Shown here: piece by piece, positions 4,901 to 33,516 of the stretch
Numbering within the stretch: position 1 is the stretch's first letter
Layout of the letters: each line of letters starts with the position of its first letter
NCBI RefSeq assembly: GCF_964204645.1
Contig: NC_134028.1
Coordinates: 17,367,653 to 17,431,652 of the forward strand
DNA from: Tubulanus polymorphus
Taxonomy: Eukaryota; Animalia; Nemertea
Reading direction: 5' to 3'
DNA: 64,000 bases
Notes under the pieces: model-generated
The model's database searches: none
What the model was told of the DNA's origin: nothing
The model's input: only the letters and a program-made list of their open reading frames with translations
Position numbers and translations under genes: made by a program

Positions 4901-7900
4901 TTCTAGGGCTGGAGCAAGAAACGTGTGGGATCGTCCGCCAAGGTATCGCTAAGGAGTCAGTCCGTGGTGGCTTTTGAAAGCGACGACCGCATATGAATGC
5001 ATTGATTGAATGACATCTCAAAAGTCAGATTATATAAAATTAAACATGATATACGGATAGGTTCTTCCAATTAGGCCTATACTGGTAAAAATGAAATGAC
5101 CCAATATGTGATATAAATGTTCAATCAAAAAGTAGAAAGTGAATCCGTAATTCAGTATGGTAGGCCTATTGTTACAACATCAAACACTCAAATTCAATCC
5201 TTTGTTGAATTGGAAGCCAGTGTAGATGAGCAAGTATCGTAGTCCCTGATTTTAGTTATCGTAATAATTCAAGCCACGTGATTTTGAACTGTTCAACAAG
5301 TTGGAGTTTGTGTAAAGATGAATGAGTTTGAAATGGAGTGGACTTCAGATATTACTGTTTGCATGCCTATGTCTATTACTTAATCTTTTTACTAATCATA
5401 GAAAATTGTGGTAAAATATTTGACTCGACGGTTGGTTTTAGATTGTATCTCTCCAAGCCAGAGGTAATCACGGATATCGGACTACAAAAAAATTCCTTGT
5501 GTAAAGCTCAACTTTGTAAATTCCTGGAAAAGCTCGCCTCGGATATTTCAATAATGATTAAACATTAATTTTCCCAACGAAAAACCTAAACAACCAATGT
5601 ACGCTTGCTTTAAGTTTACCAATGCACTATCGTTGCTTATTCTAGCTATTTGTACTGTTTGCCGCAAAAAGATTGCATCCTCTATTACAGGATTTAAGGA
5701 TAAAACTCTAAAACCAGTTAGTTTAAATTAACCATTATACAATATGATACATGACCAAATACACTGTTAATATGAAAAAGATCCAATATGTACACATTTC
5801 AAATCTCAAACCAAGTTTTATCATCAGAAAATAACGACACAACGTTCGATCGTTCACTAGAGATCATCTTTTTGAATTTGTACACAGTGAATTTTCGTAT
5901 CGTATTATGGTATTATCAATTCTCCGCATTTGAGTGTGACTATTCTACGAATACAAAGTTATTTTTAGCAATGAAGTTTTAATTGTCATTTTAAATGTTA
6001 ACTATCCACTGGTATGTAAACTTCCTAACTTTTGGCAACTGACCTCAAATCGTGGAATGGGCTCAGGTAGCCTGCTGATCCACTCTTCATTAATACTACA
6101 CACTAAAGAAATATTCAGTATAAGAAGTAAAAAGTATATTAAAGTACTATTTATCTTTATATCGCAATAATTTGTGTACGTATGATTGAAAAACGATATT
6201 CTATGGAGTCTCGTGTTACGTACTTATGATTATTGTGTATAAGATCAATAATTAGCAACCTTCCACGGATACGAAGCGGCCTAAGTTTACATCCTACCAT
6301 AATTTTCTCTAAACTCTCAGCATTATATCAAGATCGGTCTTAGAAAATATATGAAGGACGTGTTCACAGGTTAACGAGGCCAAAAATCTTCCTCAAAATT
6401 TCAAATTTTTACGAGCAAAGATAATGTACTTCATGCTTTTGGTGCAGAAATAATGGATGTCCACAAATTGCAAATTGTGTTTTCAAAGTAAACGATCCGA
6501 CTGTGGAATTGTTTCGAATTCAGGGTTCTCCCATTTACTCTCCGGTATTTTACAATGTTTCAATAAGATACGTTAGTCGCACTTTTGTTGTGATACAGCT
6601 TTCTCTATTGGTCAGCGTTGTGATCACTTAAAATTACCCATAAGTTTGAATTCTCACTGAACTACTACATCCCTTATAACGAATATATATTTCATATGAG
6701 GCGATTAACTTTGATGATCTGCGGTCAATGGACAGCAGTTACGAAACATTCAAAACTACTACATTATCTTCCATCTATTCATTATTCATATATATGATAT
6801 GATATGATATGATATGATATAATATCTCCTTTAGTGTTCAGTTTAAACGTCTTGAACGCAAAAGTTTGACAAGTTTCGCATAATGGTACCGATACGCACG
6901 TTCACACTAGTGAAATGTGCACGTTACAGGCTCAAATGCGCACGTTACAATTACAAATCGAAACGTTGTTCGTTCAAAACCCGATGTGAAAATCTTTTGC
7001 ATTTAGTGGGAAATTTCAAAGTTAGCTCGCTTCCTACAACAAAAATTGGACAAGACTTTTAAAACGACACAATTAATAAGAGTAGTACTGACGAAGGATT
7101 CAGGCAATACTCCGTGTTATTTCTAAAAACATTTAACCGGTAATTAGACAGTACTGGTGTAGCTTGTACAGGTAAAAGAGTTATTATATTTACGTTCAGA
7201 CCGAATGAAATTATTTGATACGAGACACGACTAAGTTGTGTCAGAAACAGATAAATATAGCTATGTGGTCAGTATTGGTCAAGATTTGGTCACTTGAATA
7301 GTTGTTAGATGAAAGCCCACACCATTTCTAATTATTTGACACCAAACACGACTGTGTTGCTTCTAGAATAAACAAATTACTTTAAGGTCAGTATTGGTAA
7401 AATATTGGTCAGTTAAATAGTTGTTAGATCATAGCCCGCACCGTATCTAGTAGCTCGACGCCCAAACACGATTTTATTGCTTTACTTAACATATAAATTA
7501 CATATGGTGGGTTCTAGTTAGTGGTAACTGGTCAGTACTGGTCAAGCATTGGTCAGTTAAACAATTTTTAGTTTAATGTCCACATTATATTTAGTTATTT
7601 GACACCAAATAACTTAATTGTTTGCAAAACAGATAATTTACTATATAGCCAGTACTGGTCATGCATTGGTCAGTTGATAGACCAAGGTCCACGCCACGAG
7701 TTATTTGATACTAAACATTATTGTGTCGTTTCGGAAAATTTTTCTGTTGGGCAATTTGTGGTCAGCCCTGGTTCGTTAGTTCTTATTTTGCGGGCATTTT
7801 ATCTCGAACCACCGAAAGACTGAATTACTAATTAATTCAACAGATCATTAATTAATGGAAATGAAGATCAGTGTTAACTAAGCCCTTAGTCTGAATAAAA

Positions 7901-8131
7901 TGTATGTGGTATTATATGGGTGCTATGGTGCTGTTCAACGAACTGTAACTTTTTATTTTCACTACTACCGTAATTGACTATGATGTTTTCAAGTGGTCTT
8001 AAGTACCGCTAATAGCCGAAAGTCGTTGATTTATGTGAAATTTACACACAGCGCCACCCGTTGGTAGTAAAAGTCACCCGAGCAATACGGGTGTTAAATA
8101 GATACGCTAGCAAACCGGCATTCTCATAATG
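1920..8131. mobile_element. ~6.2-kb non-coding TIR element (CATTATGAG...CTCATAATG), no target-site duplication
   Basis: Imperfect ~23-bp TIRs cattatgagttttccggtttgct / agcaaaccggcattctcataatg. TGACCA subterminal arrays at ~2380-2750 are mirrored by TGGTCA arrays at ~7260-7770. The empty site gatatatc|gcgtcaag is visible at 62040/62041. Confidence 0.8.
4483..4889. mobile_element. ~407-bp MITE, PIF/Harbinger-like
   Basis: Perfect TIRs aggcgcttttacgaaa / tttcgtaaaagcgcct. Absent at the equivalent position in copy 2 (~59083). Confidence 0.75.
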
Positions 8132-9139
8132 GCGTCAAGTCGACATGAATATGTCGATATATCGTGACGTTTTGACGACATATTTCGTTTTCTCAACCAT
8201 TTCCCTCGCGACAAGTCGACATATTCATGACGACTTGAAACTCAGTCGCCATATTACTAGCCTCCTCATCTTACATTTAGACATGTCTTCAAATACGGAA
8301 GCGATAAGGGGCCTCGAGATGTCGCGTTCCAACTCGACAAGTCGTCATATTTATGTCGATATATCGCGTCAAGTCGATATGAATATGTCGATATATCGTG
8401 ACGTTTTGACGACATATTCCGTTTTCTCGACCATTTTCCTCGCGACAAGTCGATATATTTATGACGACTTGATACTCAGTCGTCTTATTTCTGGTGTCTT
8501 CGTCTTCTATATCGGCGCGTCGTCAAATTTATGGCGACTTGTCGTGACCTTATTGCGACTTGTCGACAAAAAATGTCGTCATGTCACGAAGTTTATTCGA
8601 CAAATCAACTTTCCAATGTCGACTGTGAAGCCGTGTCACTGAAATCATGTCGTCAGATCGCGATAGCCTTCTCGATAACTCGACAAAATTTTGTCGACTA
8701 GTGAGGATACACCGACAAGTCGATGCAGATACGTCGACTTGTTTTGACGTCGCGAAAAGTGTCCTAATTTGTACATGCAACCGATGCAGGCCTACCACCG
8801 TTACCAGTGCCGCTGACATACACAGGTCCAAGGAATCGTTTGTGTGTCCCAGTAAGTACATACTGATATGCACGCTGGAATCTTTCAGTCCAACTAAATG
8901 GACGTATCAGCAAGCACTATGGTGCACAGGCGAAGGCTCATTGTGCCATTTCAGTACATAGATATGTTACAAAATTAGTCTATATGGCCCTTTTAAGAAA
9001 ATTCACCCATCCCCTTCCGAAATATAAAAAAAAATTACAGGGCGTCCACGTTGCACCTGAATGTTTACAAGCAGGCCTTACGTTTTTATTGACACGTTTT
9101 GTTCTCACGTTTTATCTCATGTAATTATCATTTCAGGAG

Positions 9140-10330
9140 ATGGATATAGATGTCTTAGTCCGTCATTATTTTGAAAGAATGTACACCGTGACAGAAATTC
9201 GAGCCTCTTTGGAAACCAATCACAGTATACTCATCAGTGAACGGACAATAAAACGCATTAAGAGGAGACTAGGATTGAGGATTCGGCGGGCAGAAGATCA
9301 TATTCAGTTAATCAGACTTATTTTGGAACTACATCAATCTGGTTATGAAAATTACGGTTACAGGAGCATTTGGAGGCTCCTCAATGTGGTGCATGGTGTC
9401 CGAGTCTCCCAAGATACCGTCCGACAATTCCTTGAAGCAATTGATCCCGAAGGTGTTTCTCTCCGTCGACACCGTCGCTTCCGGAGGAGACAATATATCA
9501 GTCAAGGTCCAAATTTTCTCATTCACATCGATGGCTACGATAAGCTAAAACCTTTCGGTATTGCCATCCACGCTGCAATAGATGGTTATTCTCGAAAGCT
9601 TCTTTGGCTCAAATGTGGACCGTCTAACAATAACCCCCGATACATTGCGCAATTTTACCTGGATTTCTTGAAAGAAATAGGGCGAGTACCGAGACTGCTA
9701 AGATGTGACCGAGGGACAGAAAATGCTATTTTGAGGGACATGCAAATTGTACTAAGATTCTCTCATGGCGACCTTATGCGTGGGATGAATAGCTTTATGT
9801 ATGGTAGATCGACTGCTAACCAACGAATTGAACGTTTCTGGTCACGACTTAGATTAAACTTCACTGACTTCTGGCGAAATATCTTCCTGGACATGAGGGA
9901 CACGGGCATATTTCATGACGCCGATGCCATACATGTACAATGTCTCCGATTCTGTTTCCTGCCTGTAATTCAACGACACCTAGACACGTACAGGACCATG
10001 TGGAATTCGCACCGAATAAGGCAGCAACGAAATGGGGAAGGGGGTTTCATTCCCAATATTGCATACGAATCGTGTGAGTTATTTGGGGCCGTCGATCACT
10101 CTTTCCCTTTATCGTGTCGTGTTGATGACCTAGATGAAGTATTTGGAGAATACGTTGACGAATATCCTGAAAGAGGGTGTAGCACTGAATTCTTAGACTT
10201 CATTCGCCGTGCTTGTCGAGCACAGAATAATCAACTTCCTCTTCCTACGTCACCCGATGATGCACTGCAACTTTTCCGAGCAGTTATTGCAGTGATCGAA
10301 ACGATTCAAGATCGTAACTTTATGAGATGA
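9140..10330 (+). CDS. IS3EU-like DDE transposase / rve integrase-core protein, 396 aa, intact
   Basis: N-terminal HTH-like region, GYR motif, GPNFLIHIDGYDKLKPFGIAIHAAIDGYSRK (D1), RCDRGTEN (D2), NQRIERFW (E), WNSHRIR. Splice acceptor ending at 9136 just before the ATG, and AATAAA at ~10387. Confidence 0.88.
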   Translation: MDIDVLVRHYFERMYTVTEIRASLETNHSILISERTIKRIKRRLGLRIRRAEDHIQLIRLILELHQSGYENYGYRSIWRLLNVVHGVRVSQDTVRQFLEAIDPEGVSLRRHRRFRRRQYISQGPNFLIHIDGYDKLKPFGIAIHAAIDGYSRKLLWLKCGPSNNNPRYIAQFYLDFLKEIGRVPRLLRCDRGTENAILRDMQIVLRFSHGDLMRGMNSFMYGRSTANQRIERFWSRLRLNFTDFWRNIFLDMRDTGIFHDADAIHVQCLRFCFLPVIQRHLDTYRTMWNSHRIRQQRNGEGGFIPNIAYESCELFGAVDHSFPLSCRVDDLDEVFGEYVDEYPERGCSTEFLDFIRRACRAQNNQLPLPTSPDDALQLFRAVIAVIETIQDRNFMR

Positions 10331-11099
10331 AATTGTAATATGTGTTCACATGTCAAATATCAAACATATACTTTGATTAGTAATTCAATAAAATGTGATG
10401 AAGATAATCGATAAATTTTTCAATTCTATGAATTATTAGAAATTCTGAGACAACAATTTTGAGGATTCAAGGACGATTATCAAATAGTATACCGAGCTAA
10501 AAACTGTCCTTTGTTACACGACGGGCAGCTTTTTACCCACTGGAAAAGTTGAATTTCTAAACCAGGTCCCACCACCTTAATGAAGATTCAACCTTGCCTT
10601 TTGAGATGACGATGAAAATTAGTCTGAATGGAGGTTTGAGGTTTGTACTGTGGACTGACTGGTCGTAAAGCTATACCCCATTTCATAACATCCGGTTGAA
10701 CATTAAAAATGAATAAAAAAAAAAAGAAATCAAGGACATTCAAAAAGAACAAAGTATAACTGATGGTCCCAATCCTGATAAATGTTGGAATAGAGAAAAT
10801 TGATTAATTATTCATTAATTAATTACTCATTTAATATTGATTAATGTTCCCGAAGTTTTCGGTTTTCGATGGATACCACACTTAAAATGATTCTGAAGAT
10901 TGCAAACTTTTTATAAACTTTTCAACTCACATACATTTTTCCATCAGAGGCATAATGACAGCCGTTACAGGCTAAGGTTTATCTGCCGATATCTTGTAAA
11001 CTAATCGAGATAGAACAGAAGTTAAAACGGTTTTCAACAGAAAAGGACGTGTGGCTTTCAGATGATATACGTTTGGTGGCAGTATCATAAAAACCAGGC

Positions 11100-11204
11100 T
11101 GCAGTTCCACAGTTCGGAATTAAGATTTGACCCTGAGTTAACACATTGAAAATGAACTAATTTTAACTCAGAGTTAACTCTAACTCACAACTGTGGAACC
11201 GGGT
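11100..11204. mobile_element. ~105-bp palindromic MITE; second copy inverted at ~25437-25543
   Basis: gttccacagtt...aactgtggaac termini with internal gagttaa/ttaactc repeats, shared by both copies. Confidence 0.6.
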
Positions 11205-11659
11205 CTAGGTTGCAGTTATTACCGGTACTTAATTAAGAGGGAATTTGTCACTACTATAAAGTACACTGTTACACTGTACTGTGTTAAATCTTGGAGTAAT
11301 CATCCAAGGTTAAATGATGCTCACAGTCATTTTAGTAACATTCCCATATGCTTCCCACGTGCGAGAAAGTAAGCCCGATCAAAAATAGAGTCCGGGTCGG
11401 CTGAAGCCCCATTGAATCCGCGCCTGCTTACTAAAAAAAATTTAACCGGGCGTTCATCTTATCAGAATACATAAGATCGATCTACGAGCAATTAAAATGA
11501 TCTTGCTCGTAGATCGATCTTATGTACTCTAGGCTACCCCTGCTATGGAGAAGGAAAACACAAGGCAGAACTGAGGGCATAGATGATTAGAAGTTGAAAA
11601 CAATAGGAATAACTTCCAGTTGTTTTTAGCACATCGCATCCCAAAGGTCCAGTTGCGAT

Positions 11660-12520
11660 CCTCATCCTCTCCTCTTTAACCTAATTCTACATGCAACCTT
11701 TGGCTTTTAATAACTCGTCCTTATCTCTAAGTCAGCGTCTTCAGAAGGCTCTAGGCAATCTCGACACCTACTGTAGAAAGTGGGGCTTTACAGTGAACTA
11801 GAATAAAACTAAGATTGTAATTTTTAATAAAGGAGGAAATCTCCTTAATAATCACACTTTTTACTATGATGGTTTGGTGATTGAAATTGTCCGTAACTAT
11901 TGCTACTTGGGTATATTATTTTCTGCCTCGTAAATTTAATAATGCTTTTTAACGGCTTCTAGATCATGCAAAAAAGGCTATGTTTAAATTTTAACGTCCA
12001 TCAATGTTAGAAACAATATCACTATCGCCTACAAACTTTTAATCTTTTTGCACCTATCATGTTATATTGTGCTGAAGTTTGGGTGTCAGCTATTTGGATG
12101 GCGTCAGCTCAACCAATTTGCATAATGTTTGTGAATCAATCCCAGATAGAAGGTTGATGTTGAGGTTTGCAGAGTAAAAAAAAAACAATTGTCAAATGCC
12201 GCAGTTAGGTGAACTAGTCCAATTTCCACTTCTCATCAGAATCATTCCAACAATTTCACGTTACTGGAACGACAGTGGAACCTCGTTACAGTGAACTTCA
12301 TGAACCTTCATATCAAATCAACCTCCCAGCTGGGGTAAGTCTATAGCTGCCTCTCTGTCACTTCAATTTTTAACTGTCTGTGGGAAAACCAAGGCTCTTT
12401 GTTTATTAATCAAATCTCCCTTTCTCCCTCTCATCCTAAAGAATGGTTAGCTTATATAAATGGCTCTTCTAGTAATCCTCTTTTAAGAACCTACCGAGAA
12501 ACTAGTCAGCTCTCACAAGC
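11660..12520 (+). pseudogene. Decayed LINE (CR1/L2/Crack-like) RT C-terminal fragment
   Basis: Translates to LQKALGNLDTYCRKWGFTVN*NKTKIVIFNKGG...IEIVRNYCYLGILFS with stops and frameshifts. Confidence 0.8.
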
Positions 12521-13794
12521 TTTCTATAGACAAGGTATCAATTTTTCGCCTGAGGCCTGAGGAAGCGTTTGCACTTCATAAAAGTTCCACTTTCATGCAA
12601 ATGGAGCCCAAAGACAGAGCTGGCTACGGGCTTAAGGACCTTGGCAAAAAACTGTAATGTGAAATGTCAAGACATGGTCAGGAACCTTGACGGACCAGAC
12701 TGGAAAAAAAATAAACAACAATTTCAAACGTATAAGAAGTTTATTCAGACACGTACGGTATACATGAAAATTGGATAACACCAAATAACACCATTGCACA
12801 TATACACCATTTCTGTAACACTACATGTCCAACTATTAATCAGTCGCTACTTTTTCTGTATATATTTCACTACCAAATCTGCATACACGCAAGTTAAAAA
12901 CGTTCAGGTCCCGTAGCTTAGAAACAAGTTTGCTACTGCTAATTGTAAAAGATCTTTTTCTGCTTATAAAAAGAAAATGAACACTAACACTGGTACCCCA
13001 CTAACCTAAGCACCGAGTGGGTTTAAAACAATTACATGCTTAAAATAAAAACAAAATGAAAGACATTTCTCTTGCATATGTCAGAAAACGAAGCTCTTCT
13101 CATGCTCGATGATTATAAATCTATCTGGTCATAGCTAGGTGTTTAAGGTAGCTAGTTGTTTCAACTCTCTCTCTCCCAAGCGTCTAAAACCCTACTAGGG
13201 CGTAGTGTACTCAAAAATACAAAATACACATTCATTTTTCAGTCAAAGAATATAGTATTTGAATACACAACTTTGATCTATAAAATAAGTTTATTCCGTG
13301 AAGTTTAAAAAGAATAGTTTTCCTTCAACTCTCTACACTATTACTTAGAATCATATGTTTCATAGAATCCTTACATTTTGAGTCTAGAGTTTAGATACTA
13401 TGCAAACTAACTACCTTAAGTCCAAGCCTAAAACTGGCCACTGCTAATGAAATATGTGTATTTATACATATCTTAAAACTCTTAAAACCTAAACAGGCTA
13501 AAACAAAATAGTGGAATGGTGTATCTATCAGGGTTCTTACAGATAAGGAAATAGAAAAATCCCTGATTTAAAGAAAAGTCAGTATTCCCTGATGTTCCCC
13601 AGCAAGGAAAAATAAATCTGGAACTAGGCACGTCTCCTCGAGGTAAGGGAACAGTAAAGGGGCAAGAAATTGAAACTGCATACTCCATAAACAGCTGAGT
13701 TTATTTAACTGTTCATCGAGTTTGTAAGAATTATTGTCTTTACTCTCATATCAAGTTTCATAGATATCAATCAAATATACCAACCAGGCTGTTG

Positions 13795-14140
13795 TACGGA
13801 AGCGATAACCTCCAGTTGTCGTGCTTTCCAACTCGACAAATTGTCATACTTATATCAATATATCAGGATATATCGCATCAAGTCGATCTGAATATGTCGA
13901 CATATCGTGATGTTTTGACGACATATTTCGTTTTCTCGACCATTCCCCGCGACAAGTCGACATATTCATGACGACTTGAAACTATGTCATCATATTACTG
14001 GCGTCCTCATCTTACATTTCGACGTGTCTTCAAATGACGACTTGTCCCGTGGAAAATGGGCGAAAAAGCGAAATTTGTCGTAAAAACGTCACGATATGTC
14101 GACATTTATGTCGGCTTGACGGGATATGTGGACATATCGA
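13795..14140. mobile_element. Partial IS3EU-like MITE copy
   Basis: Starts tacggaagcgataa and shows gtcgac-rich homology to the 8294 TIR. Right end is missing. Confidence 0.7.
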
Positions 14141-14412
14141 CATTGTGCTGACAAATTCAAGATGGCTACCGTAGTGGCTGTATTTGATGGTCGATCACCT
14201 CTATTTTGAAAAGGAGTTGATATCTCACCTACCCAAATCCTCACACTAAGTTTAAGAAAAATGCAATAAGAATTTGAGCCTGTATCGCGCTAACGATATG
14301 TCATAGGGAGGGCGGACACCGCACGGCAGACATATGCCTCCCCCATCGAGGAGACATGATTCACTGATATTCCCTGATCTGTAAGAACCCTGATTATTTA
14401 CAAACAAAAATC

Positions 14413-14786
14413 TACGAAGCGATAAAGGGCCTCCCGTTGTCGCGTTCCAACTCGACAAGTCGCCATATTTATGTCGATATATCGCATCAAGTCGACATCA
14501 ATGTGTTGACATATCGTGACGTTTTTACGACATATTTCGTTTTCACGACCATTTTCCTCGCGACAAGTCAATATTTTCATGACGACTTAAAAGTCAGTCG
14601 TCATATCAATGGCGTCCTCATCTTACATTTAGACGTGTCTTCAAATGACGGCTTGTCCCGTGAAAAATGGGCCAAAAAGCGAAATTTGTCATGAAAACGT
14701 CACGATATGTCGACATATTCATGTTGACTTGGCGCGATATATCGACATAAATATGACAGCTTGGGAGGCACTTTATCGCATCCATA
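14413..14786. mobile_element. IS3EU-like MITE copy
   Basis: tacgaagcgataaaggg ... ctttatcgcatccata, flanked by an aaaatc duplication. Confidence 0.75.
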
Positions 14787-14821
14787 AAAATCAAATGCTA
14801 AAATTCACAGTTCGTGTCCTT

Positions 14822-17800
14822 TTAGTAGAAAATGCTCTGAACACGCTCTATTTCTGTTCTGCATGTTGGGCACACATGCCGAGAATCATGGATATGCATT
14901 GAGCACACCAGACAAAATGAATGGCCACATGGTATGAAAAAAGCATTTCTCTGTCGATCATAGCACAAAATACAGAGCTCTCTTGTTGCCGATGTCGCTG
15001 CAGGTGGACATGCTGACGGACATGCTGATGGACATGCTGACGGACATGCTGAGGAATTGCGTTGAACCTAAAATATACGAACAGCAACTTGTATTTGTCA
15101 AATAAAAGGGGTATTTCATCAGAATTATTATGCAATCAGAAAATTTCAATATGCAGCGCCCCTGGTGAAGACATAAAGAAACCAATTAGGTTAAAAAACC
15201 CGCCACAATTATAGACCATGTCATGAACTACAATTTTGTAATTGATTGTGGTGTATTAGGAATTTACAGGTCTGAGAATTCGGACTGAAATTGACCTTTT
15301 GGGCCTAAAAATGTCACATTGACTGGGCCAGTTTTTGGGCTGTAGATGCGTCTAAGGTAAACCAATCCATCGAAGGGTCTTAAAAACTTCCATCAATAAC
15401 TAGATTACCGGTATGTCTACGGACAAACGAAATGAACAGATGGTCGGAAGGTAAGGGCATAAAATAACAATGCAATAGCCCACTGGACTTAAAAAGCAAT
15501 CAAAAATTTCTGTAGAGACTGACTAGAACAAAATGAATACAAAACTTAATGAAAAATTCTTAATAACTCATAATCATAACTGCCTCTAAATATAAAATTA
15601 CTGTGTCCTGGTACTAGCAGAGACAATTATTCATCTGTTGGAGCTACACCTTGTGATAAGACTTAAAACACAAGAATTGGATATTTTACCTGATTTGTTT
15701 CAGACCACGTTGAATTCCCGGTTGGTACTGTATTAAGAACATGAAATACAGGCGAGTTCGGGGAGTTTTCCTTGTTAACAACACCTACAGCATTTGTGTT
15801 TCCGCTTTGTCTAATAGTTAACAGTGGGAGATCATCAAAATCAGAGTCATCGTCCGTGTCTTCGGGTAGCAGCTATACATGAATATAAACATAAATATAT
15901 GATCGGTAAGACCAGGTCATCACAATTGTCAGCCTGTTTGTTGATAGAGCACTGCTGCGTTTTGTGAAATTTGCCATCAATCAATTTATCTAATAGTCCA
16001 ATTAACAAGGGTACCTTCAAGTACTGAAGCGATAAAGGGCCTCTAGTTGTCGTGTTCCAACTCAACAGGTCTTATTGATGACAAATTTTGCTTTTTCATC
16101 TATTTTCTACAGAACAAGTCGTCATTTGATGAGATGTCAAAATGTTAAGACGAGGATGTCAGTAATATGACGACTGAGTGTCAAGTCGTCATGAATATAT
16201 CGACTTGTCACGAGGAAAATGGCCAAGAAAACGAAAAGTCATGTCGACTTGACGTGATATATCGTGACATCTCGACATAAATAGGCGCTTTGTCGAGTTG
16301 CAACGCAACAACTGGAGGCCCCTTATCACTTCCATACTCAAAGGATCAATCTAGGCACAACTAATGTACGAAGTAACTGCTGCTGTAACGAAAAGAATAT
16401 TCATACCAAATATGGTAATGATCTAAAATGGATTATAAACTAAGGGGTCTAATCCAAAATATGGGTCTATATTGTTTAAGGACGCGGTGGATATGTCACC
16501 AAGTTCCATGTCTAGGATTAACACATGTATAAGCCAAACCAAATATCAAGATTATCCATTGAAACATTTTTAACCCATTAGCACTCAAGCCGCCCATATC
16601 CGCCCTGCCTATTACTCCTCAAGCCACCCGAATCTGCCCGGCACTTTTTGCATGCTGCACGAAAACGGTTATAGTGGGTTTTGAACCCAATAGCTTATGA
16701 TGAACAACACACCTAAGTCCTCGAAATACCAAACAGAAATCAACATCCCCTATTTCGATTTCTCGAGTATTTCGAATTTGAACAGGACACATCTGGGCTA
16801 TTACTTCAAATCCAAATAAGTTTGGATAAATTTCGGGGGGCCAAAAGGACAGGATTTTGGCGGCCCACCTCATCAAATCTTACAGCATGTGAAAGCCTTG
16901 ACCATTTGTAATGCATGGAAATAAACAGTAAATGAGTTATTCGGTATCATGATGAACTTGGATTTTGCCCTGAATTTTCTGAGGAGTAATTGACACTACA
17001 TAGTGCAATTCTTGAGTGCTAATGGGTTAATACATCTTTAAATTGATACATCAAAGCGTGTTGAAAACCTAAAATAACTGGATTCTATCTAGACAATCAG
17101 ACAAAAAGTGAATGCCCTAATGAGCTTCAAATACAGTGTAAAATGAAGGTTTTAGAAGTAGGATCCTAACCATATCACTCAAATCTCCTCCACTGCTTTT
17201 CCTTTTCATTTTTTCCATCAAAGTTATCAGCCTTTGCTCTAAAAATATTCACAAACAGATGAATTAGATCTTACGAAAACACCATTTGTATCAGCCCATC
17301 AATTGATTTCAAGGAACTAATTAAGTTGCCTTTATAGGAAAAACCCTGTTAAGTCCTTATAGCTGGGACGATTATTGTGTCGAGTACATATCCAAATAAA
17401 AACTTACACTTTCAATCAAATCGGCAATACAAATGGAATCGAAACACGGATGATGACTAAACCAATTTCGAATATATATATATATGAGTTTAGTAAGGCT
17501 TAAGGCTCTGCGAAGTTACACAACATACCAGTTACTGAGGGAGTAGTATTCATTGTAGCTGACGCCCCTTGGTTTGACTCTAAAAAGACAAAAGATTTTA
17601 AATAACCTATGCATTCACACATATGTAAATCATACTTGGGTCAAACACAAAGCCTAGCAGACAGAATAGAATACACTACAAGGAAAGAAAACCACGTTTC
17701 TTCAGATGTATGTTGTGACTGTACGCATTATTCTGAAATAAATTGCCCATGGGAAAAGTCTAGTTTACCTTGAAAACTGGAGCTTGTTTTGAGCAGGGCA

Positions 17801-18788
17801 TTGCTTATGAAAAATCTTTTTAATTATTGAGTTCAAAGTTCTATTTCATATTGTCTTTTCATCTTTCTCAAGGAATTATTTTGTAGTATAAAAGGCCAAA
17901 ATTATACATTTGTTTATGGTCCACGTCCAATATTTCGTAGGGTACAGGTAGGTAGGGAAATTATTTTATATTTTGAAAAAAATATTTTTCATAATATGAA
18001 AAATATTTAACCCCGAAAATAAAATTCATATTATATCACCAAACAGAGGGTGGCTAAATATTTAAAGTCCTGACAACTTCTTCCAAAGTTCACTAACACT
18101 TCAATAGTCAATCAAAACACACAATGGGTGTTAAATGAAACAATACCTAGTGAAACAATTATACTATCACAAGGAATGAGCAATTGGAATTCGCACATGT
18201 ACTTAGTCCAATGAAACGTTCGCCATTTTATGGCTTTCCCATAATTATTTTAGTAGCACCAGAATCCCCAGAATTTCCCCAATCACATCCACTTGTAGAG
18301 ACGACCCACTCCGCCGCAAATCAAGGTCATTACAATTTTGTGCGCAAGAGCTAAGAATTTCCCCAACAGGTCATCGGCGGAGGTTTCGTTTGTCTTCAAT
18401 CGCATCAATAATACATCATTGGCCGAGAACTAATGAAACAAATGCGCACAATAAAATGAACCTGGATTTTACATAATTGGCTCAATGCCAACTCACCTAT
18501 CACTAACAAAGGTAAACCAAAGAAAACTATTCAGCCAAACTTTTTCCCCTGCTGAGGATGAATGGTATCTAGGAACTAAAAACATTTTTGGTTTGTGTGC
18601 TTTCTCAGGCTCAAAAGATATGCTGTTACCTGGAGGTGATTGATCATACCACTCTTCCTGCTCAGTTAATAACATGAGGATGCTATCATCTGGGACTGCA
18701 TCAAAATAGTCATTGTCGATCTCAGTCCCGTCACTTCGTAAAACAAGTCGAAATATCATTTCACCATCTAAGGAAAACTTTTCCTGAC
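14822..18788 (-). CDS. Spliced gene: CIDE-N domain + low-complexity linker + C-terminal C3HC4 RING (IAP/MDM2-like); first coding exon not found
   Basis: Exons (minus) 18788-18630, 17579-17529, 17238-17171, 15872-15690, 15067-14822, all with AG/GT sites and compatible phases (1-1, 1-1, 1-0, 0-0, 0-stop). CIDE-N motif FRLVLRSDGTEIDNDYFDAVPDDSILMLLTEQEEW. RING motif CILCYDRQRNAFFIPCGHSFCLVC...CPTCRTEIERVQSIFY*. Confidence 0.82.
16022..16336. mobile_element. IS3EU-like MITE copy in an intron of the CIDE-N/RING gene
   Basis: tactgaagcgataaagggcc ... ccccttatcacttccata. Confidence 0.7.
16574..17026. mobile_element. piggyBac-like MITE, 453 bp
   Basis: TTAA TSD on both sides and perfect TIR cccattagcactcaag / cttgagtgctaatggg. 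Confidence 0.85.
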
Positions 18789-19447
18789 CTGTTTCAAGAA
18801 AAGTAATAAATGAAAATACAATTGTAGATCAGGTTAAAGGTATTGGATAGGATGATGTTGTGACATATACCGCTAAATTCTATTTATTTTCGTCTGACAT
18901 CGATATTTTTGGAAAGGCCTATTTCTCTTAATCTTTTGAACACATAGGCCTACTTCAAATCGGTCTTAGCTTAATTAAATAGGACCAGTGAAACTGCGCA
19001 GTCAAGGAAACAATTTTTTTAGAATTCATTTTGCAATGTGTTGATGGATTGCTAAAAGGTCTTCTTTAATTCATTTGAATCAGAGAAAAAAGACTCCAGG
19101 GAGGTGGGACTCCCATCTCCCTGGTTTTATGAACTAATCAATTTTATGTTTCCATGCCAAACATTTTAAATTAGTTTCATATCATCAAAATCATGGTTCG
19201 TATGCATAGAAAATCTACGGAAAGCTATGATGACTTGCTCAGAAATCATATCTGCAACATCTTCTAAGCGTATATCGCTCTTGTCAAGAAGCAGTGACAG
19301 AAAATATATTGTTATAATTTTTAAAACACAGTGGATACTTTACTGTGTACGGCAGAGTGTTTTTCCGCTATTTTACCGTACATCGTCACTGATTGGCTGA
19401 TTTACAGAGGTGCGCGACATAAAATTCGAAGAGTGTGGAGAACAGAG

Positions 19448-19698
19448 TGTTACGGCCAGAAAAAGCCAAACTACAAACACAACTCGGAAGACTGCCATCT
19501 ACATAACACCAACTGCTTTATTAAACAGAACTCAACTGAACTGCTGAATATCAACAGTACGAACATATATATACAGGAAACAACAATAGAAGAATACAGA
19601 CAGAGATTAAAGCTTACAATATTCACAATGAACACTGACATGCGACGAAATAGGAACTTGAAAACCGGTGATGCTAGACAAACATCGAATACGTAACA
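19448..19698 (-). repeat. 3' LTR
   Basis: Direct repeat of 24522-24774. On the minus strand it is preceded by the polypurine tract aagaagggggg (19699-19709). Confidence 0.95.
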
Positions 19699-19754
19699 CC
19701 CCCCTTCTTAAAGAAGAGACCATAAAGTAGTTATTTACAATTACCATTACTAAT

Positions 19755-22700
19755 TTACGCTCTAGACAACGCATCCGCCACAACATTATTACAACCACGT
19801 ACATGTAATATATGGAGATCATACTCCTGTAAGGTTAAACACCATCTCATCAACCTCTTGTTCTTATTCTTCATACTATTTACAAAAGTTAACGGATTAT
19901 GATCAGTATAGACAATCACCGGAAAGAGACACATAGTAGTATATACGTTAAAATGTTCTAAAGCAAGTATCAAGGCTAAACATTCTTTCTCAATAGTTGA
20001 GTAATTTTGTTGCGAAACATCAAATTTTTTTGAGAAGTAACAAATTGGATGGTCTATACCACAATCGTCAGCTTGAATTAATACAGCACCTGCACCAATG
20101 TCACAGGCGTCGATCATTAATTTGAATTGCCTACCAAAGTCCGGCGCAATAAGCACTGGTTTATTACTCAACAATCTTTTTACGTTCAAGAACGCCTCAT
20201 CACGATGATTAGTCCACTCAAATTTAACATTCTTCTTCAACAAATCAGTCAATACCGATGTAACCTGGGCAAAGTTCACACAGAATTTTCTATAATAACC
20301 TGCCATACCCAGAAATCGCATTAAAGATCGACGATCCTGGGGGGCGGGATAATTAACAATAGCTTCAATTTTTGCATTTACGGGTTTAACTTGCCCATGG
20401 CCTACAACGTGACCCAAATATATACATTTAGCTTGACCAAAACCACTTTTAATTAGATTTACCGTCAAGTTAGCCTCAGTTAATCTCTCAAATAGGCATC
20501 GTAATTGATACAAGTGTTCATTCCACGTATCAGAAAATACAATTACGTCATCAATATATACAACAACACATATAAGACCTTTAATGACTTGATTCATCAG
20601 CCGTTGAAACGTGGCTGCCGAATTTTTCATCCCAAATGGCATTCTACAGTATTGGAATAAACCATGAGGGGTACAAAAGGCGGATATTTCCCGAGCACGC
20701 TGAGAAAGAGGAACCTGCCAATAACCTTTTGTAAGGTCAAATTTACTGATGTATTTGGCTCTACCGATTCTATCTATCAAATCGTCAATTCTTGGAATTG
20801 GGTAAGAATCAGATTTGGTAACCGAATTAACCTTACGATAGTCCGTACAGAACCGCCACTTACCATTCTGTTTCGGAACTAAAATACAGGGTGAACTCCA
20901 ATCACTCGTGCTAGGCTCGGCAATACCCGTCTTTAACATAGCGATAACCTCCTCTTTCATAATTTCAGATTTAACAGGATTCACACGATATGGATGCTGC
21001 TTCGTTGGTTTAGCCTCACCAACATCCACATCGTGACAAGCGAGCGTAGTCAAGCCCGGAGTATCTGTAAAGAGATGTTGAAATTCATTTAACAATTGTT
21101 TTAAATCAGATTTCTCACGAGGCTCCAAGTGATCTAATTTGGCATTAATATTATCCATCACTTTCGAATTTTCAAATAGAAAATCTACATAATTACTCTG
21201 ACTGTCACCACCATTAGAAACTGATCCGCTACAAAACGGTAACGTTTTATCAACTGCACTACCGACATCATCCGCATCCAGTAAATTAGAAGAATGAACA
21301 GTATCGATACACATATTTATACTACTAGCAGAGTCTTGGTTTCTTTCTAAATAACGTTTCATCATATTAACATGACAAACCTGACTATCTTTCCTACGGT
21401 CAGGAGTCGCTATCAAATAATTTACATCATTTAATTTTTCGAGTACAATGTAAGGACCTCGAAATTTCGCCTGAAGGCTCGCCCCCTTAAAAGGAAACAA
21501 TACAAGAACTTTGTCCCCCGGACTAAATATTCGTTTCCGAGCCTTTTTATCATACCATGTTTTCATATTCATTTGAGAGTCCTTCAAATATCTACGGCCA
21601 CTCTCCCACGCCTTGAATAATCTATTTCTAAAACTAGAAACATACTTCAATAAGTTACAGTCATTCTGTTTTTCATCATTATCAAGTAGAAATCTTTCTT
21701 TAAGCAATTTAAGCGGACCGCGCACTTCATGCCCAAAAACTAATTCGAAGGGACTAAATCCTAATGACTCTTGGACCGCATCTCTAACGGCAAACAAAAG
21801 AAACGGAACCCCTTCATCCCAATCTTTTTGATTTTCTTCACAGTAAACTGTAAGCATTGTCTTCAACGTTTGATGAAACCTCTCAAGCGCCCCCTGAGAT
21901 TCAGGATGATACGCACTCGAAGTACTTTGTTTAACACCCAGTTGATACATGACCTGTTGAAACACTCCAGAAACAAAATTTGATCCCTGATCAGACTGTA
22001 TACTTTTTGGAAACCCGTATGACGTAACGAATTTTGTGAGTGCTTTTAATATTGTAGGAGCATTAATTGTACGCAGAGGAATTGCCTCTGGATAGCGAGT
22101 TGACTTGCACATGATCGTCAACAAATACTCATTACCAGATCGAGTTTTTGGTAACTTACCAACACAGTCACAGATAACGTCCGAAAATGGTTCATTAAAT
22201 GCAGGTACAGGTATCAACGGATGTTTGGGTATAGCCTGATTAGGCTTACCACATATTTGGCAATAATGGCATGAGGCACAAAAATTACTCACATCTTTTT
22301 TTATGCCCGGCCAAAAGAAATGTTGCAATACTTTGTTATACGTTTTTGTCACCCCAAGGTGACCTCCTAATGGTTTTTCGTGAGCCAAACGCAAAATATC
22401 TTCACGATAAACTGATGGAATGACAATCTGATAATTAACTTTCCATTCAGTAGATGCAGGGACATCAGGTGGGCGAAATTTGCGCATTAGCACACCTGAA
22501 TCCAAAAAATAACCACAATGGCTATCAGCAAGATCCTCTTTTGAGGCATAAACAATAGAAATTAGTTTCTCCAAATCCCTATCACTTTTTTGAAACCTAA
22601 TTAAGTTAGAACGTGACACAACATCAAAATCAGAAACAAGAAGAGAATCATCAAATATCTTCGATAAAAACGTGTCACGTAAATGAAAAGAATTCTCTGA

Positions 22701-23327
22701 ATTTTCATCATCAATAGATCTTAAGTCATTCTTAGATTCTAAATTTTCAAATCCGCCGCTAGTCTTTTTAGACATAGACCTAGTTACCACACATGAGGGA
22801 AATAACCCAGGAATTTCCTGGTCTAATAACTCAGTCTCAAAACTAAGAACAGGGTTCTTAGAAACAAAAGGATTTACCCTAACATTACCACCGGCCAAAT
22901 CATTTCCAAGTAACAGAGAGATACCCTGAACTGGCAACGACGGACACACACCCATCTCAAACCAGCCAGACATTAAATCACAATCCAAATATAGTTTATG
23001 AATTGGTACATCGAGAATCTCGGACCCAACACCCCTAAGAAGTACGTTTTTACCGGTATAAGTGTGCTTAGACAATGGTATGGTTCCTTCTAAAATTATG
23101 GTTTGTGACGCGCCAGTATCGCGTAATATCTTGACACTCACCATTGAATTATTTTCACTGAACGATACTTTGCCATCACTTATAAACGGTTCAAACGACC
23201 TCTTGTAGGTAGTTGATGACGAAATTGTTGATTCATCTGACAGTACTGGAGGATGGGGTGTAAGTAAGGCGATCGACCCAGTAGATTTCCGTTTTCTCTT
23301 TGCCTGTAATTTGAAGCACGAAGACAT
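19755..23327 (-). CDS. pol: Pol polyprotein: aspartic protease, integrase, reverse transcriptase, RNase H
   Basis: LRDTGASQ (protease). HEKPLGGHLGV...CHYC zinc finger, SDQGSNF and ERFHQTLK (integrase). FCTDYRKVN and VYIDD (RT). IDACDIGAG and YSTIEKECLA (RNase H). Confidence 0.95.
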   Translation of the reverse strand: MSSCFKLQAKRKRKSTGSIALLTPHPPVLSDESTISSSTTYKRSFEPFISDGKVSFSENNSMVSVKILRDTGASQTIILEGTIPLSKHTYTGKNVLLRGVGSEILDVPIHKLYLDCDLMSGWFEMGVCPSLPVQGISLLLGNDLAGGNVRVNPFVSKNPVLSFETELLDQEIPGLFPSCVVTRSMSKKTSGGFENLESKNDLRSIDDENSENSFHLRDTFLSKIFDDSLLVSDFDVVSRSNLIRFQKSDRDLEKLISIVYASKEDLADSHCGYFLDSGVLMRKFRPPDVPASTEWKVNYQIVIPSVYREDILRLAHEKPLGGHLGVTKTYNKVLQHFFWPGIKKDVSNFCASCHYCQICGKPNQAIPKHPLIPVPAFNEPFSDVICDCVGKLPKTRSGNEYLLTIMCKSTRYPEAIPLRTINAPTILKALTKFVTSYGFPKSIQSDQGSNFVSGVFQQVMYQLGVKQSTSSAYHPESQGALERFHQTLKTMLTVYCEENQKDWDEGVPFLLFAVRDAVQESLGFSPFELVFGHEVRGPLKLLKERFLLDNDEKQNDCNLLKYVSSFRNRLFKAWESGRRYLKDSQMNMKTWYDKKARKRIFSPGDKVLVLFPFKGASLQAKFRGPYIVLEKLNDVNYLIATPDRRKDSQVCHVNMMKRYLERNQDSASSINMCIDTVHSSNLLDADDVGSAVDKTLPFCSGSVSNGGDSQSNYVDFLFENSKVMDNINAKLDHLEPREKSDLKQLLNEFQHLFTDTPGLTTLACHDVDVGEAKPTKQHPYRVNPVKSEIMKEEVIAMLKTGIAEPSTSDWSSPCILVPKQNGKWRFCTDYRKVNSVTKSDSYPIPRIDDLIDRIGRAKYISKFDLTKGYWQVPLSQRAREISAFCTPHGLFQYCRMPFGMKNSAATFQRLMNQVIKGLICVVVYIDDVIVFSDTWNEHLYQLRCLFERLTEANLTVNLIKSGFGQAKCIYLGHVVGHGQVKPVNAKIEAIVNYPAPQDRRSLMRFLGMAGYYRKFCVNFAQVTSVLTDLLKKNVKFEWTNHRDEAFLNVKRLLSNKPVLIAPDFGRQFKLMIDACDIGAGAVLIQADDCGIDHPICYFSKKFDVSQQNYSTIEKECLALILALEHFNVYTTMCLFPVIVYTDHNPLTFVNSMKNKNKRLMRWCLTLQEYDLHILHVRGCNNVVADALSRA

Positions 23328-23399
23328 TAAATGGCCAGATTTTTTACAATAATTGCAAATAACGGGTGAATTTTGCCCTTTTAGCTGATAACTAGAAGC

Positions 23400-24263
23400 T
23401 TAACTACGAACAGTATCATAAGATTTAACCTCTTTAAAGACCTTATGGGTTAAGGAATAGTCATCAGCAGCTGTAGCTGCCTCATTTAAATCATAAACCT
23501 TTTGTTCATCAAAATAGGTTTTAATTTCCACTGGTACAAACTGTTTAAATTCTTCCAAAAGCATTAACTGTCGCAATTTGTCAAAATCGCTTTTAACTAA
23601 TTTAGAATCACACCAGCGAGTGAACAAGGTTTCTTTTTCCCTAGCAAATTCTAAATATGTTTCATTTTCAACCTTTTTACGATCTCTGAACCGTTGCCGA
23701 TAGGCTTCTGGAACTAATTCATACGCTTTAAGAATACAAGATTTTACAATTTCATAATCATATGACTGTTCGGATGTAAGCGACGAATACACTTCTTGAG
23801 CCTTCCCAGTTAGAACACTCTGGAGTAGCAAAGTCCAGTTTTCCTGCGGCCAATTTAGATTAAGCGCGACTTTTTCAAAATGCAAAAAATACTTATCTAT
23901 ATTGGAATCTTGGAACTTCGGAACCAATCGGATGTGACGTGTAACATCGAAGTGTAGATGATTCGACTGTAGACGATTCGTCTGACGACTGGTCTCAACT
24001 TCACGAAGACGAATTTCCATCTCTCTAAGTTGTAGCTCATGTTGCTCCCGCTCACGATCCCTTTCACGATCCCGTTCGCGTTGTCCGGCTTCAAATTCCA
24101 GCTCCATCTTTCGAATTTCGTAGGCATGGTCAGAAATTGGTTCTACTTCACACTGTTGAAATAAACCCTTCAAAACGAGATAACTGTCTATGACTTCCTT
24201 AATGTTCGATTTTAGCATAGACGATTTAACACCGAGTTCATAAAATGTGGCAACATCCAACAA
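23400..24263 (-). pseudogene. gag: Gag (SCAN-like capsid); in frame with pol but cut by a TAA at 23400-23402 and an upstream TGA
   Basis: YFLHFEKVA...W...LL...LTGKAQEVY...YELVPEAYRQRFR...LRQLMLLEEF, typical of Gmr1 Gag. The zinc knuckle CNYCKKSGHLMSSC lies just past the stop in the same frame as pol. Confidence 0.85.
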
Positions 24264-24499
24264 CTCTTTTTTAGTAAAGAGTCATAAAGCCTCCCTCGTA
24301 GGAGAACTAATAAAAGTATCGCAGCCATTTGACTCGTAGAAATGCTATCGGGATCAGGAAAACGGAAAAAAATCTCTGCAATACCTCAAACTGAAGAAAT
24401 CCTGATTCCGGAGTTCAATTGAAAAGTTGACAATCGTCGACGACAAAAAGCAGTTCAAAATGTACGAATCTTCCAATTGCAGAACGAAACGGCAAGGTC

Positions 24500-24516
24500 T
24501 CCCGGACGAGCCCCCA
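24500..24516 (-). promoter_or_regulatory. Primer binding site, tRNA-Pro
   Basis: Minus strand TGGGGGCTCGTCCGGGA, the known tRNA-Pro PBS sequence, 5 nt inside the 5' LTR. Confidence 0.88.
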
Positions 24517-24521
24517 ATTTC

Positions 24522-24774
24522 TGTTACGGCCAGAAAAAGCCAAACTACAAACACAACTCGGAAGACTGCCATCTACATAACACCAACTGCTTTATTAAAC
24601 AGAACTCAAGTGAACTGCTGAATATCAACAGTACGAACGTATATATATACAGGAAACAACAATAGAAGAATACAGACAGAGATTAAAGCTTACAATATTC
24701 ACAATGAACACTGACATGCGACGAAATAGGAACTTGAAAACCGGTGATGCTAGACAAACATCGAATACGTAACA
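24522..24774 (-). repeat. 5' LTR
   Basis: Differs from the 3' LTR by one substitution and a 2-bp indel as read by eye. Confidence 0.95.
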
Positions 24775-24834
24775 CAGAGTTATAGAAAATAGAGGGAGAC
24801 TCGAACCCGGGCCAGGTAAATTAGCGCTGCGTCA

Positions 24835-25286
24835 GTCTTCCTTATTACCGAGATGACGTAATTTACCAAGATGAACCGAGATCAACGGAGATGACATGAA
24901 ATATAACATATTTATTGATTCCTTATCGATTTTTACACTTGAAATCATATCATATCAGTAATAAATACCTTCTAGAGTCACATTCTACCTATTTTTCAGG
25001 ATATTTTTGTAGAAAAATAACTTTTAACTTTACCGAGATGAGATCGTCAATCAATCAAATTCAATGAAATTTCATTGCTAACCGAGATGACGTATTTGAA
25101 GTCAAAATTTTTTTATACAAAATATCCTGAAAAATAAGTAGAATATGATGACTCTAGAAGGTATTTATTACTGATATAACATGATTTCAAGTGTTAAAAT
25201 CGATAAGGAATAAATAAATATGTTATATTTCATGTCATCTCTGTTCATCTCGGTAAATAACGTCATCTCGGTAATAAGAAGGACCC
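24835..25286. mobile_element. ~450-bp fold-back MITE, Mutator-like
   Basis: Long TIRs (cttattaccgagatgacg...) covering most of the element, flanked by duplicated gcgctgcgtca (24824-24834, 25287-25297). Confidence 0.75.
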
Positions 25287-25630
25287 GCGCTGCGTCATAC
25301 CACTAGACCACCGAGCTCGCTGAAAACCAATCAAATGTTTTAGGGGCCTAACTATCTATGGTTTCTCACCTTACCCTAATCCTATTCCTAGGGGTAAAAC
25401 GGACCCTAACCCTAACTCTAATCCTAACCCTCTGGGCCCGGTTCCAAAGTTGTGAGTTAGAGTTTACTCTGAGTTAAAATCAGTTAATTTTCGATGTTTT
25501 AACTCCAGAGTCAAATCTTAACACAGAACTGTGGAACTGGGTCCTGGACCTGGGTCCTTTAGAACCCGAACCCTAAACCCAATAAAATGATTTTATTCTT
25601 ACTTTGATTAGTTGATACTATAAACGAAGT

Positions 25631-26014
25631 GGCTACTCGTACGGACCCGTACGAATAATTCCGTAGGCTATTCGTACGCACCCGTCGGATAACTCTGAAA
25701 TTATGTGTACGGGAAGGTATAGGGTTAGGGTAAGGTGAGGCTATATGTAGTTAAAACATTCGACCGACTGTCAGCGAGCTCGGTGGTCTAGTGGATTGAT
25801 GCTGCGCTAGTAATTTACTAGCCCGGGTTCGAGTCTCGCTCGATCCGCTATTTTTTCTAACTATTCTCCACACTTTTCTTGAATTTTCTAAGTCGTGCAC
25901 CTCTGTACGCATGCGCGGCGTTTATCGGCCAATCAGCGACAGTTATTAGCGTACAGGTCCTAGTCCCGTACGAATAGCCTCCAGAGTAATCCGTACGGGT
26001 CCGTACGAGTAGCC
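25631..26014 (+). mobile_element. Small IR-bounded element containing a tRNA-like Pol III box A/B head and tagggt repeats
   Basis: Perfect 23-bp IR ggctactcgtacggacccgtacg. Internal TGGTCTAGTGG and GGTTCGAGTC boxes at ~25780-25836. An inverted, diverged relative spans 19384-19447 + 24780-24834 + 25298-25430. Confidence 0.55.
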
Positions 26015-26220
26015 TCAGCGTACTATAAAAGTAATGATGTAAGGTAAAATAGTAGAAGTTAACACTTAGCCGTGGGCCTACGCCAGTTAAATATCCACTT
26101 CGTTTTAAAAATGGCTAAATTTTCTCAATTCAACATGGGAAAATTAAGACCTTTTCGTCAGACGAAAATAGATATACTCTCAAATCAAGTAGAAATAGAC
26201 ATTGGATATCAATCAGCCTT

Positions 26221-27453
<1,233 letters not shown>

Positions 27454-28479
27454 GGTTCGAACCCTGCAATTCCAAAACCTGCCAAAATATTCACGTGCAA
27501 ATGAACCCAGCCTTCGTGCGCGTGGGGCCGTCGCGCAGTTTTGGTCATAAGTCTCAGTGGAAGTACGGCCAGTGCCACGAACCGGGGACTAGAGGCCTGG
27601 CCCCCACTGGGTGGGTGAGCTTAAAAAGATCCAATGCATGCCTTTGCTTACCTCAGCATACACGTGAAGCTTTACCCGACACCGGCTTTGAAAGTCCTGA
27701 ATGATGCTGCGCCAGCGGTTGAGGGCGTTTAAGAAATTAGGACACTTTTCGCGACGTCAAAACAAGTCGACGTATCTGCATCGACTTGTCGGTGTATCCT
27801 CACTAGTCGACAAAATTTTGCCGAGTTATCGAGAAGGCTATCGCGATCTGACGACATGATTTCGGTGACACGGCTTCACAGTCGACATTGGAAAGTTGAT
27901 TCGTCGAATAAACTTCGTGACATGACGACATTTTTTGTCGACAAGTCGCAATAAGGTCACGACAAGTCGCCATAAATTTGACGACGCGCCGATATAGAAG
28001 ACGAAGATACCAGAAATAAGACGACTGAGTATCAAGTCGTCATAAATATATCGACCTGTCGCCAGGAAAATGGTCGAGAAAACGGAATATGTCGTCAAAA
28101 CGTCACGATATATCGACATATTCATATCGACTTGACGCAATATATCGCGATATATCGACATAAATATGACGACTTGTCGAGTTGGAACGCGACATCTCGA
28201 GGCCCCTTATCGCTTCCGCACTTCAAATGACGGCTTGTCCCGGGGAAAATGAGCAAATAAGCGAAATTTGTCGTGAAAACGTCACGATATGTAGACATAT
28301 TCATGTGGACTTGACACGATATATCGCGATATATCGACATAAATATGGCGACTTGTCGAGTTTGAACGCGACAACTCGAGGCCCTTTATCGCTTCCGTAC
28401 TATATCAGATTAATCGACTTCAAAATAGGCGAAAGCATGTGTCTTTATTACGTTATTAATTCGCCTAATTATTCAAAAA

Positions 28480-31305: not shown

Positions 31306-31428
31306 TTACAGTTATATTCAGAACAGTTAACAAAGGGAAAAAAATTTATTGAATTATGGAATAATGATCCAAATAATGAACAATACGTTGAGGATCCGAT
31401 GTTTATACTAGAAAATGATTCTATTTGA
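31159..31428 (+). CDS. Chimeric 89-aa ORF: pPolB N-terminal zinc finger fused to a duplicate of the HNH ORF C-terminus
   Basis: The first ~49 aa match the pPolB N-terminus (TIR copy, one substitution). The tail LQLYSEQLTKGKKFIELWNNDPNNEQYVE matches the end of 31555-32229. Confidence 0.6.
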   Translation: MFNFNKKYSIKMEANKYYCPTCNIDIDKSQKARHNKTKTHLENKLKLEYLQLYSEQLTKGKKFIELWNNDPNNEQYVEDPMFILENDSI

Positions 31429-33513: not shown

Positions 33514-33516
33514 AAT

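Follow-up and report, generated by a model that had tools for sequence, protein, structure and literature searches.

A handful of host proteins and some baculoviruses are known to carry the CIDE-N domain. DFF45/ICAD (DFFA), DFF40/CAD (DFFB), DREP1-4 and CIDE-A/B/C all carry it with an acidic cluster, and the domains bind one another by their opposed acidic and basic faces, forming head-to-tail filaments (PMC8647176). On a genetic parasite, CIDE-N occurs in betabaculovirus proteins of 91-185 amino acids (aa) such as MyunGV#8 ORF38, which have been proposed to act on host DFF and for which the accessible text describes no RING (PMC5245865). In Hydra, CIDE-N is over-represented alongside transposase domains, with no fusion described in the accessible part of the study (PMC7642931). 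As to DNA transposons, IS3EU elements have TA..TA ends and usually 6-bp target duplications (PMC10045372); in fungi they end in TAYGG..CCRTA and have a second gene opposite the transposase, with alpha-kinase cargo (PMC12730594). GingerRoot shows 7-bp duplications in 5 of 77 copies and, in clubmoss, host gene fragments in 22 of 77 (PMC6839031). Here we analysed a 64-kb stretch of the genome of the nemertean Tubulanus polymorphus (the window), in which a minus-strand gene joining part of a CIDE-N domain to a C-terminal RING lies within an IS3EU/GingerRoot-like DNA transposon. Because it is inside this 20-kb element, and because mussels have full-length relatives of it, the gene is more likely to encode a transposon-borne ligase than to be an ordinary host gene. 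We favour, with a probability of roughly 0.55, the reading that the intact protein is an accessory ubiquitin ligase of the element, clustered by CIDE-N and with its substrate chosen by a middle domain.

The element spans 19,927 bp (8294-28220) and is delimited by terminal inverted repeats (TIRs), termini, a target-site duplication (TSD) and an empty site. Its left TIR (477 bp, 8294-8770, plus strand) and right TIR (487 bp, 27734-28220, minus strand) align with 470 identities, 7 mismatches and 10 gap positions, that is 98.5% identity at aligned positions. They are flanked by the 7-bp TSD CTTCAAA (8287-8293 and 28221-28227, plus strand). The empty site, with a single CTTCAAA and contiguous flanks, is found at 62196-62202 (plus strand), where 62038-62208 matches 8129-8298 and 62196-62784 matches 28221-28813. 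It stems from a segmental duplication in which 1-8298 and 28221-30671 correspond to 48227-63907 at 80-96% identity. Just inside the left TIR, and convergent with the cargo gene, a 401-codon open frame (9125-10330, plus strand) encodes a DDE transposase of integrase-core type (PF24764 rva_4, 124.4 bits; HTH_21, 39.8 bits), with D131, D190 and E231 when numbered from the Met at 9140.

The element termini read TACGG..CCGCA, of which the left fits TAYGG and the right differs from CCRTA by one change; four ends of sister miniature inverted-repeat transposable elements (MITEs) read CCGTA. A TSD of 7 bp is also seen at the enclosing MITE, and one of 6 bp at a third MITE. We label the element IS3EU/GingerRoot-like because its left terminus, its transposase and its facing gene fit published traits of these groups and a 7-bp TSD is a reported minority form among them, a placement judged from its ends, TSD, transposase domains and gene order. 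It shares with them an integrase-type DDE transposase, long TIRs, a TAYGG-type terminus, a facing second gene and non-autonomous relatives, and departs from them in its 7-bp TSD and CCGCA right end. Its cargo is CIDE-N plus RING, whereas fungal IS3EU elements carry alpha-kinase or TET genes and clubmoss GingerRoot carries host fragments. No HECT remnant was found in 62 frames scanned between the transposase and the cargo gene. A 1.2-kb (CA)-rich microsatellite occupies 26287-27454 within the element.

MITEs that share its termini lie around and within the element: repeat comparison places a truncated one related to its TIR in intron 3 of the cargo gene (16080-16340, minus strand) and further ones at 13795-14143 and 14413-14786. 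Their abundance in the window, and the fact that a single full element is seen, would suit an ordinary host gene trapped between two MITE ends as a composite, instead of regular cargo. We regard this as very improbable, as the ~480-bp TIRs are 98.5% identical and reach well beyond what the MITEs have in common with them, both TIRs lie within a single target duplication, the empty site is contiguous, the transposase sits just inside the left TIR, and the mussel relatives are multi-locus and near-identical. The initial annotation had treated it as a hidden gene of host type, whereas it sits inside a transposon bounded by TIRs.

Four sequencing runs of one study match the stretch, none of them on record as RNA; X4 was taken as RNA because its contigs have GT-AG joints and leave introns uncovered. 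RefSeq in addition holds XP_074649036.1 (LOC141904349, Tubulanus polymorphus), which is 100% identical to three exons of the window gene. On the minus strand, the gene consists of an exon for the C-terminal half of CIDE-N (18630-18788, phase 1-1; PF02017 match, used by XP_074649036.1), a 51-nt linker exon (17529-17579; AG/GT borders, X4 and the RefSeq model), a 68-nt exon for a helix like that of Mytilus proteins (17171-17238; X4, the RefSeq model and sequence comparison), an exon for an acidic low-complexity linker (15690-15872; X4, no Pfam match) and a last coding exon (14822-15067; PF13920 match) with a 12-bp tandem repeat (15006-15052), a C3HC4 RING, a hydrophobic tail and the stop. All five exons have AG before and GT after their borders, the last one ending in TAA, and they join into 707 nt, in which one frame is open, with 234 residues and a stop, while 13 and 21 stops occur in the other two. 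The five-exon, ~235-codon stop-free frame of the initial annotation was thus recovered. With the donor at 18630 the CIDE-N exon is of phase 1-1, as in Dffa, for which this pattern has been given (PMC2426694). A long 3' untranslated region probably extends over 12740-14821 (minus strand), with X4 contigs at 12756-14073 and 14090-14465 and an AATAAA at 12740.

Both domains, as the annotation had expected, exceed their Pfam cut-offs. The first exon matches CIDE-N (PF02017) with 44.8 bits against a cut-off of 23.5, over profile positions 31-75 of 76 only, and the last exon matches zf-C3HC4_3 (PF13920) with 51.4 bits against 27. The top PDB matches of the CIDE-N exon are the CIDE domains of DFF40/CAD and DREP2, its Atlas matches are CIDE-N clusters (0.92), and mapping by eye indicates that it retains the acidic CIDE face. 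The C-terminal RING has all eight zinc ligands; their last pair is followed by an arginine, and there is a short hydrophobic tail. Such an arginine and tail have a role in activation of the ubiquitin-conjugating enzyme (E2) and in dimerisation, and RINGs of PF13920 type recruit charged E2. Against PDB, the window RING matches RNF4, MEX3C, CBL, MYLIP and IAPs about equally (at most 31.5 bits). It resembles IAP-, MYLIP-, MEX3- and CBL-type ligases in its C3HC4 ligands, arginine and hydrophobic tail, whereas the gene has none of their BIR, FERM, KH or TKB domains. No BIR was detected in the scanned window exons or in eight scanned Mytilus proteins, and identity as a true IAP was rejected for lack of it; the term "IAP-type" of the initial annotation fits the finger only, because the PF13920 type is shared widely, IAPs, MYLIP, MEX3C and CBL included, and no BIR accompanies it. 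A plain DFFA or DFFB orthologue was likewise rejected: unlike those genes, this one is transposon-borne and has a RING in place of a DFF-C or DFF40 domain behind CIDE-N. The acidic linker exon gave no Pfam match, and word-based homologue searches with single exons returned zero relatives among 5 and 1336 candidates, which is weak evidence.

The splice junctions were borne out in part. X4 lists nine joints, among which are 15067/15690 and 17238/17529, two of the four proposed; 17579 is joined in X4 to 18497 instead of 18630, and exons 3 and 4 are separated by additional sequence. The RefSeq model uses 18630/17579 and 17529/17238, but beyond these it continues into intron 3, where it ends with no RING. 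Most of the gene is covered by spliced X4 contigs, but X4 does not confirm one mRNA that joins both domain exons. X4 leaves the unique parts of three introns and the region upstream of the first exon without cover, while contigs of X2 and X3 span the last intron uninterrupted. The X4 contig runs 50 letters past 18788, and therefore some upstream exon exists. X4 is a single sample, and rare forms drop out of contigs.

Use of the 18497 donor adds a 133-nt extension to the CIDE-N exon (18497-18629, minus strand; X4 joint 17579-18497 and contig 18497-18788), makes the CIDE-N frame end at the exon 2/3 border and puts the RING out of frame, although the letters between the two sides of this joint are left open in the contigs and could alter the frame outcome. 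On a weight matrix, the donor at 18497 scores 6.56 and that at 18630 scores 3.49. Between exons 3 and 4, X4 carries 338 letters with no match to the stretch at 93%; together with one chance-matched base they make 339 nt (113 codons), in frame, and this insert probably represents a middle-domain exon.

The locus might then give two products, or hold decaying captured fragments: a short CIDE-N-only protein, at best a decoy, and a RING protein from an internal start, with the fusion a product of annotation. The X4 form that stops ahead of the RING frame and the RING-less RefSeq model are in line with this, as are the six of eight scanned mussel models that miss one or both domains and the frequent carriage of host gene fragments by GingerRoot (PMC6839031). 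However, in-frame full-length models exist at two loci in each of two mussel species, the domains are conserved, exon borders are common to mussels and the nemertean, and the 18630 donor is used by RefSeq and yields the Dffa-like phase 1-1 exon, so that we consider this explanation improbable.

The mussel relatives came from protein searches. A search with the CIDE-N exon gave 36 matches, 34 of them with CIDE-N and one, an uncharacterised Mytilus trossulus protein (P0009), also with a RING. When residues 15-215 of P0009 were searched, three matches were obtained among 402 candidates, and 3/3 had both CIDE-N and RING (M. trossulus and M. californianus). The fusion proteins are XP_063407171.1 and XP_063405306.1 in M. 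trossulus and XP_052098764.1 and XP_052100159.1 in M. californianus; these Mytilus CIDE-N-RING proteins are already in RefSeq, as uncharacterised. All have the same layout, with CIDE-N, a helix, a middle domain of 126-128 aa, an acidic linker and a C-terminal PF13920 RING. The family forms clusters on several long contigs (three loci in M. trossulus, eight LOC ids in M. californianus), and these dispersed near-identical copies would fit transposon carriage.

The window gene and the Mytilus proteins have in common CIDE-N, the helix, an acidic short-repeat linker, the C-terminal RING with its hydrophobic tail, and exon borders. Compared with a Mytilus fusion, the window product is 35% identical over the first 85 columns and 44% over 59 aa of RING, and the window RING scores 52.8-54.5 bits against Mytilus family proteins. 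A search with the 40-residue linker returned Mytilus family members in all 12 best rows after the self-match, at weak E values of 0.12-0.81. The window gene and Mytilus share the residue at which the CIDE-N exon begins, the read-through point after the helix is identical in truncated Mytilus models and the window model, and where X4 has its 339-nt insert, Mytilus has a middle exon of phase 0-0 that codes for 124-128 aa. Two things that the window lacks are present in Mytilus: the middle domain of 126-128 aa and, in the M. trossulus proteins, a complete CIDE-N, in which mapping by eye finds the basic residues of the first half and the acidic cluster kept. CIDE-N is complete in P0046. DFF-C and DFF40 domains are absent from P0046 and P0047 and present in the control matches P0012, P0029 and P0034. 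The pairing of CIDE-N and RING put forward in the initial annotation is therefore real as a protein family, as far as sequence can tell, with Mytilus chains that bear both Pfam domains, but the 235-aa product is a reduced form of it.

Between M. trossulus and M. californianus, identity is 58/61 (95%) in the RING, 28/29 (97%) in the helix, 103/126 (82%) in the middle domain and 68/101 (67%) in the linker. AlphaFold gave the mussel middle domain a mean predicted local distance difference test score (pLDDT) of 36.4 over eight sequences, and its PDB matches, a putative transporter (E 0.058) and OTU1 (E 0.37), are too weak to name a fold. Atlas matches of P0047 are unnamed chordate clusters (0.83-0.85), to be taken as leads only. 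Among the other CIDE-N matches, P0039/P0006 (from Logan) correspond to a protein of 493 aa that begins cysteine-rich and has a hydrophobic segment and seemingly three tandem CIDE-N domains, and P0006 (223 aa) has two CIDE-N domains by Pfam, an unusual layout.

The copy in the window is itself incomplete, without the first half of CIDE-N and without the middle domain. No first half of CIDE-N was detected in the 64-kb window, in agreement with the 5' truncation that the initial annotation had suspected: a profile of this half reached at best 8.5 bits over the six window frames, while six of seven left-out control members scored 13.9-34.2 bits and one scored 1.0, and 0/50 short window frames matched CIDE-N. 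The middle-domain exon was also searched for within the window and is absent. With both of these missing, it is unlikely that this copy yields a working full-length ligase, and it may instead give separate CIDE-N-only and RING-only products.

We picture the intact protein as CIDE-N followed by a helix, a middle domain of ~113-128 residues, a linker of acidic repeats and finally the RING, which would bring in ubiquitin-charged E2. The middle domain would pick the substrate, most likely either the transposase of the element itself or a host factor that restricts transposition. CIDE-N, as a charge-based polymerising module, would assemble head to tail and cluster the ligase, raising its local concentration.

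CIDE-N could instead provide the target. In an anti-apoptotic effector of this kind, it would dock on host DFF40/CAD or DFF45/ICAD and the RING would ubiquitinate them, so that cells with transposition breaks escape DNA fragmentation; the docking and ubiquitination are those proposed in the initial annotation, here placed in a transposon. CIDE domains are known to partner with one another, the best PDB matches of the CIDE-N exon are DFF40/CAD domains, DFFA and DFFB exist in lophotrochozoans (P0012, P0018), and the small betabaculovirus CIDE-N proteins offer a proposed precedent for action on host DFF (PMC5245865). Yet CIDE domains also self-polymerise, and the conserved middle domain is an alternative substrate site; the faster change of CIDE-N than of the RING between mussels would fit a host-facing surface but also fits relaxed constraint. 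We hold this reading to be less probable than the accessory ligase. The same doubtful standing applies to its evolutionary counterpart, by analogy with the baculovirus CIDE-N proteins, in which an IS3EU-like lineage in lophotrochozoans would have grafted CIDE-N onto a RING to ubiquitinate host CAD/ICAD, as an IAP-like suppressor of apoptotic DNA fragmentation.

Several observations weigh against a transposon-borne accessory ligase. The TSD has 7 bp where 6 bp is usual for IS3EU, and X4 joins 17579 to 18497, the 18630 joint being absent from its listing. The Mytilus relatives are known here from proteins and locus listings and could not be placed in transposons, and five locus scans of viral and metagenome contigs gave zero relatives. 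The half of CIDE-N compared between the mussels is the least conserved domain (29/45, 64%), and the eight mussel models scanned divide into two with both domains, four with RING only, one with CIDE-N only and one with neither. Lastly, a CIDE-N half-domain tree (n=34; P0002 and P0030, which are non-CIDE, and P0001, the window's own, left out) does not place the window exon together with the mussel rows, yet such a placement is not rejected (approximately unbiased test, p-AU 0.33).

Other mobile elements lie around the gene. A Gypsy long terminal repeat (LTR) retrotransposon (19448-24774, minus strand; LTRs, TSD CAGAG, reverse transcriptase, RNase H, integrase and SCAN) is inserted 660 bp upstream of the CIDE-N exon. 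Its LTRs align with 251 identities, 1 mismatch and 2 gap positions; it is young, its integrase precedes the reverse transcriptase, its gag is SCAN-like, and gag and pol form one frame with a single stop between. A Polinton/Maverick-like element at 30757-47950 has 554-bp TIRs that are 99% alike and a 6-bp duplication GATATA, with an integrase over two frames split by one stop (33514-34605), an A32 ATPase (34598-35212) and a 1358-codon polymerase-like frame (43484-47560). The CIDE-N-RING gene is located outside 30757-47950, and its assignment as cargo of this neighbour was rejected. A 317-bp repeat (90%) is inserted at 41816-42132 within the Polinton and recurs, inverted, at 48790-49105 outside it.

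A 6-kb element with short imperfect inverted ends is present at 1920-8128 and 56105-61872, at sites ~170 bp apart between the duplicate segments, and its copy at 1920-8128 interrupts the same MITE as the IS3EU-like element. Two overlapping minus-strand frames at 50546-52176, one with DUF1280 (86.4 bits), are probably a decayed transposase gene. The region ~11650-12400 is degenerate and by eye resembles the end of a reverse transcriptase of a long interspersed nuclear element, with zero Pfam matches. Arrays of a 31-bp minisatellite occupy 28490-30172 and 62465-63414.

In the searched literature, which included few subscription papers or Repbase entries, we found neither a fusion of CIDE-N with a ligase nor CIDE-N on an IS3EU-type element described, and no paper that ties IS3EU elements to ubiquitin ligases; the listed matches of the bivalve literature make no mention of CIDE-N. 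The betabaculovirus proteins are a close parallel, in that a genetic parasite carries CIDE-N and host DFF is the proposed target, but are viral and not transposon-borne, and no RING is described in the accessible text (PMC5245865). Transposon cargo may also account for some of the multi-copy "CIDEA-like" and RING annotations of invertebrate genomes. If it is true that the intact protein acts on CAD/ICAD, it would offer a direct handle on a DNA transposon interfering with cell death; if CIDE-N only clusters the ligase, it would mean that transposons reuse the CIDE-N module for assembly.

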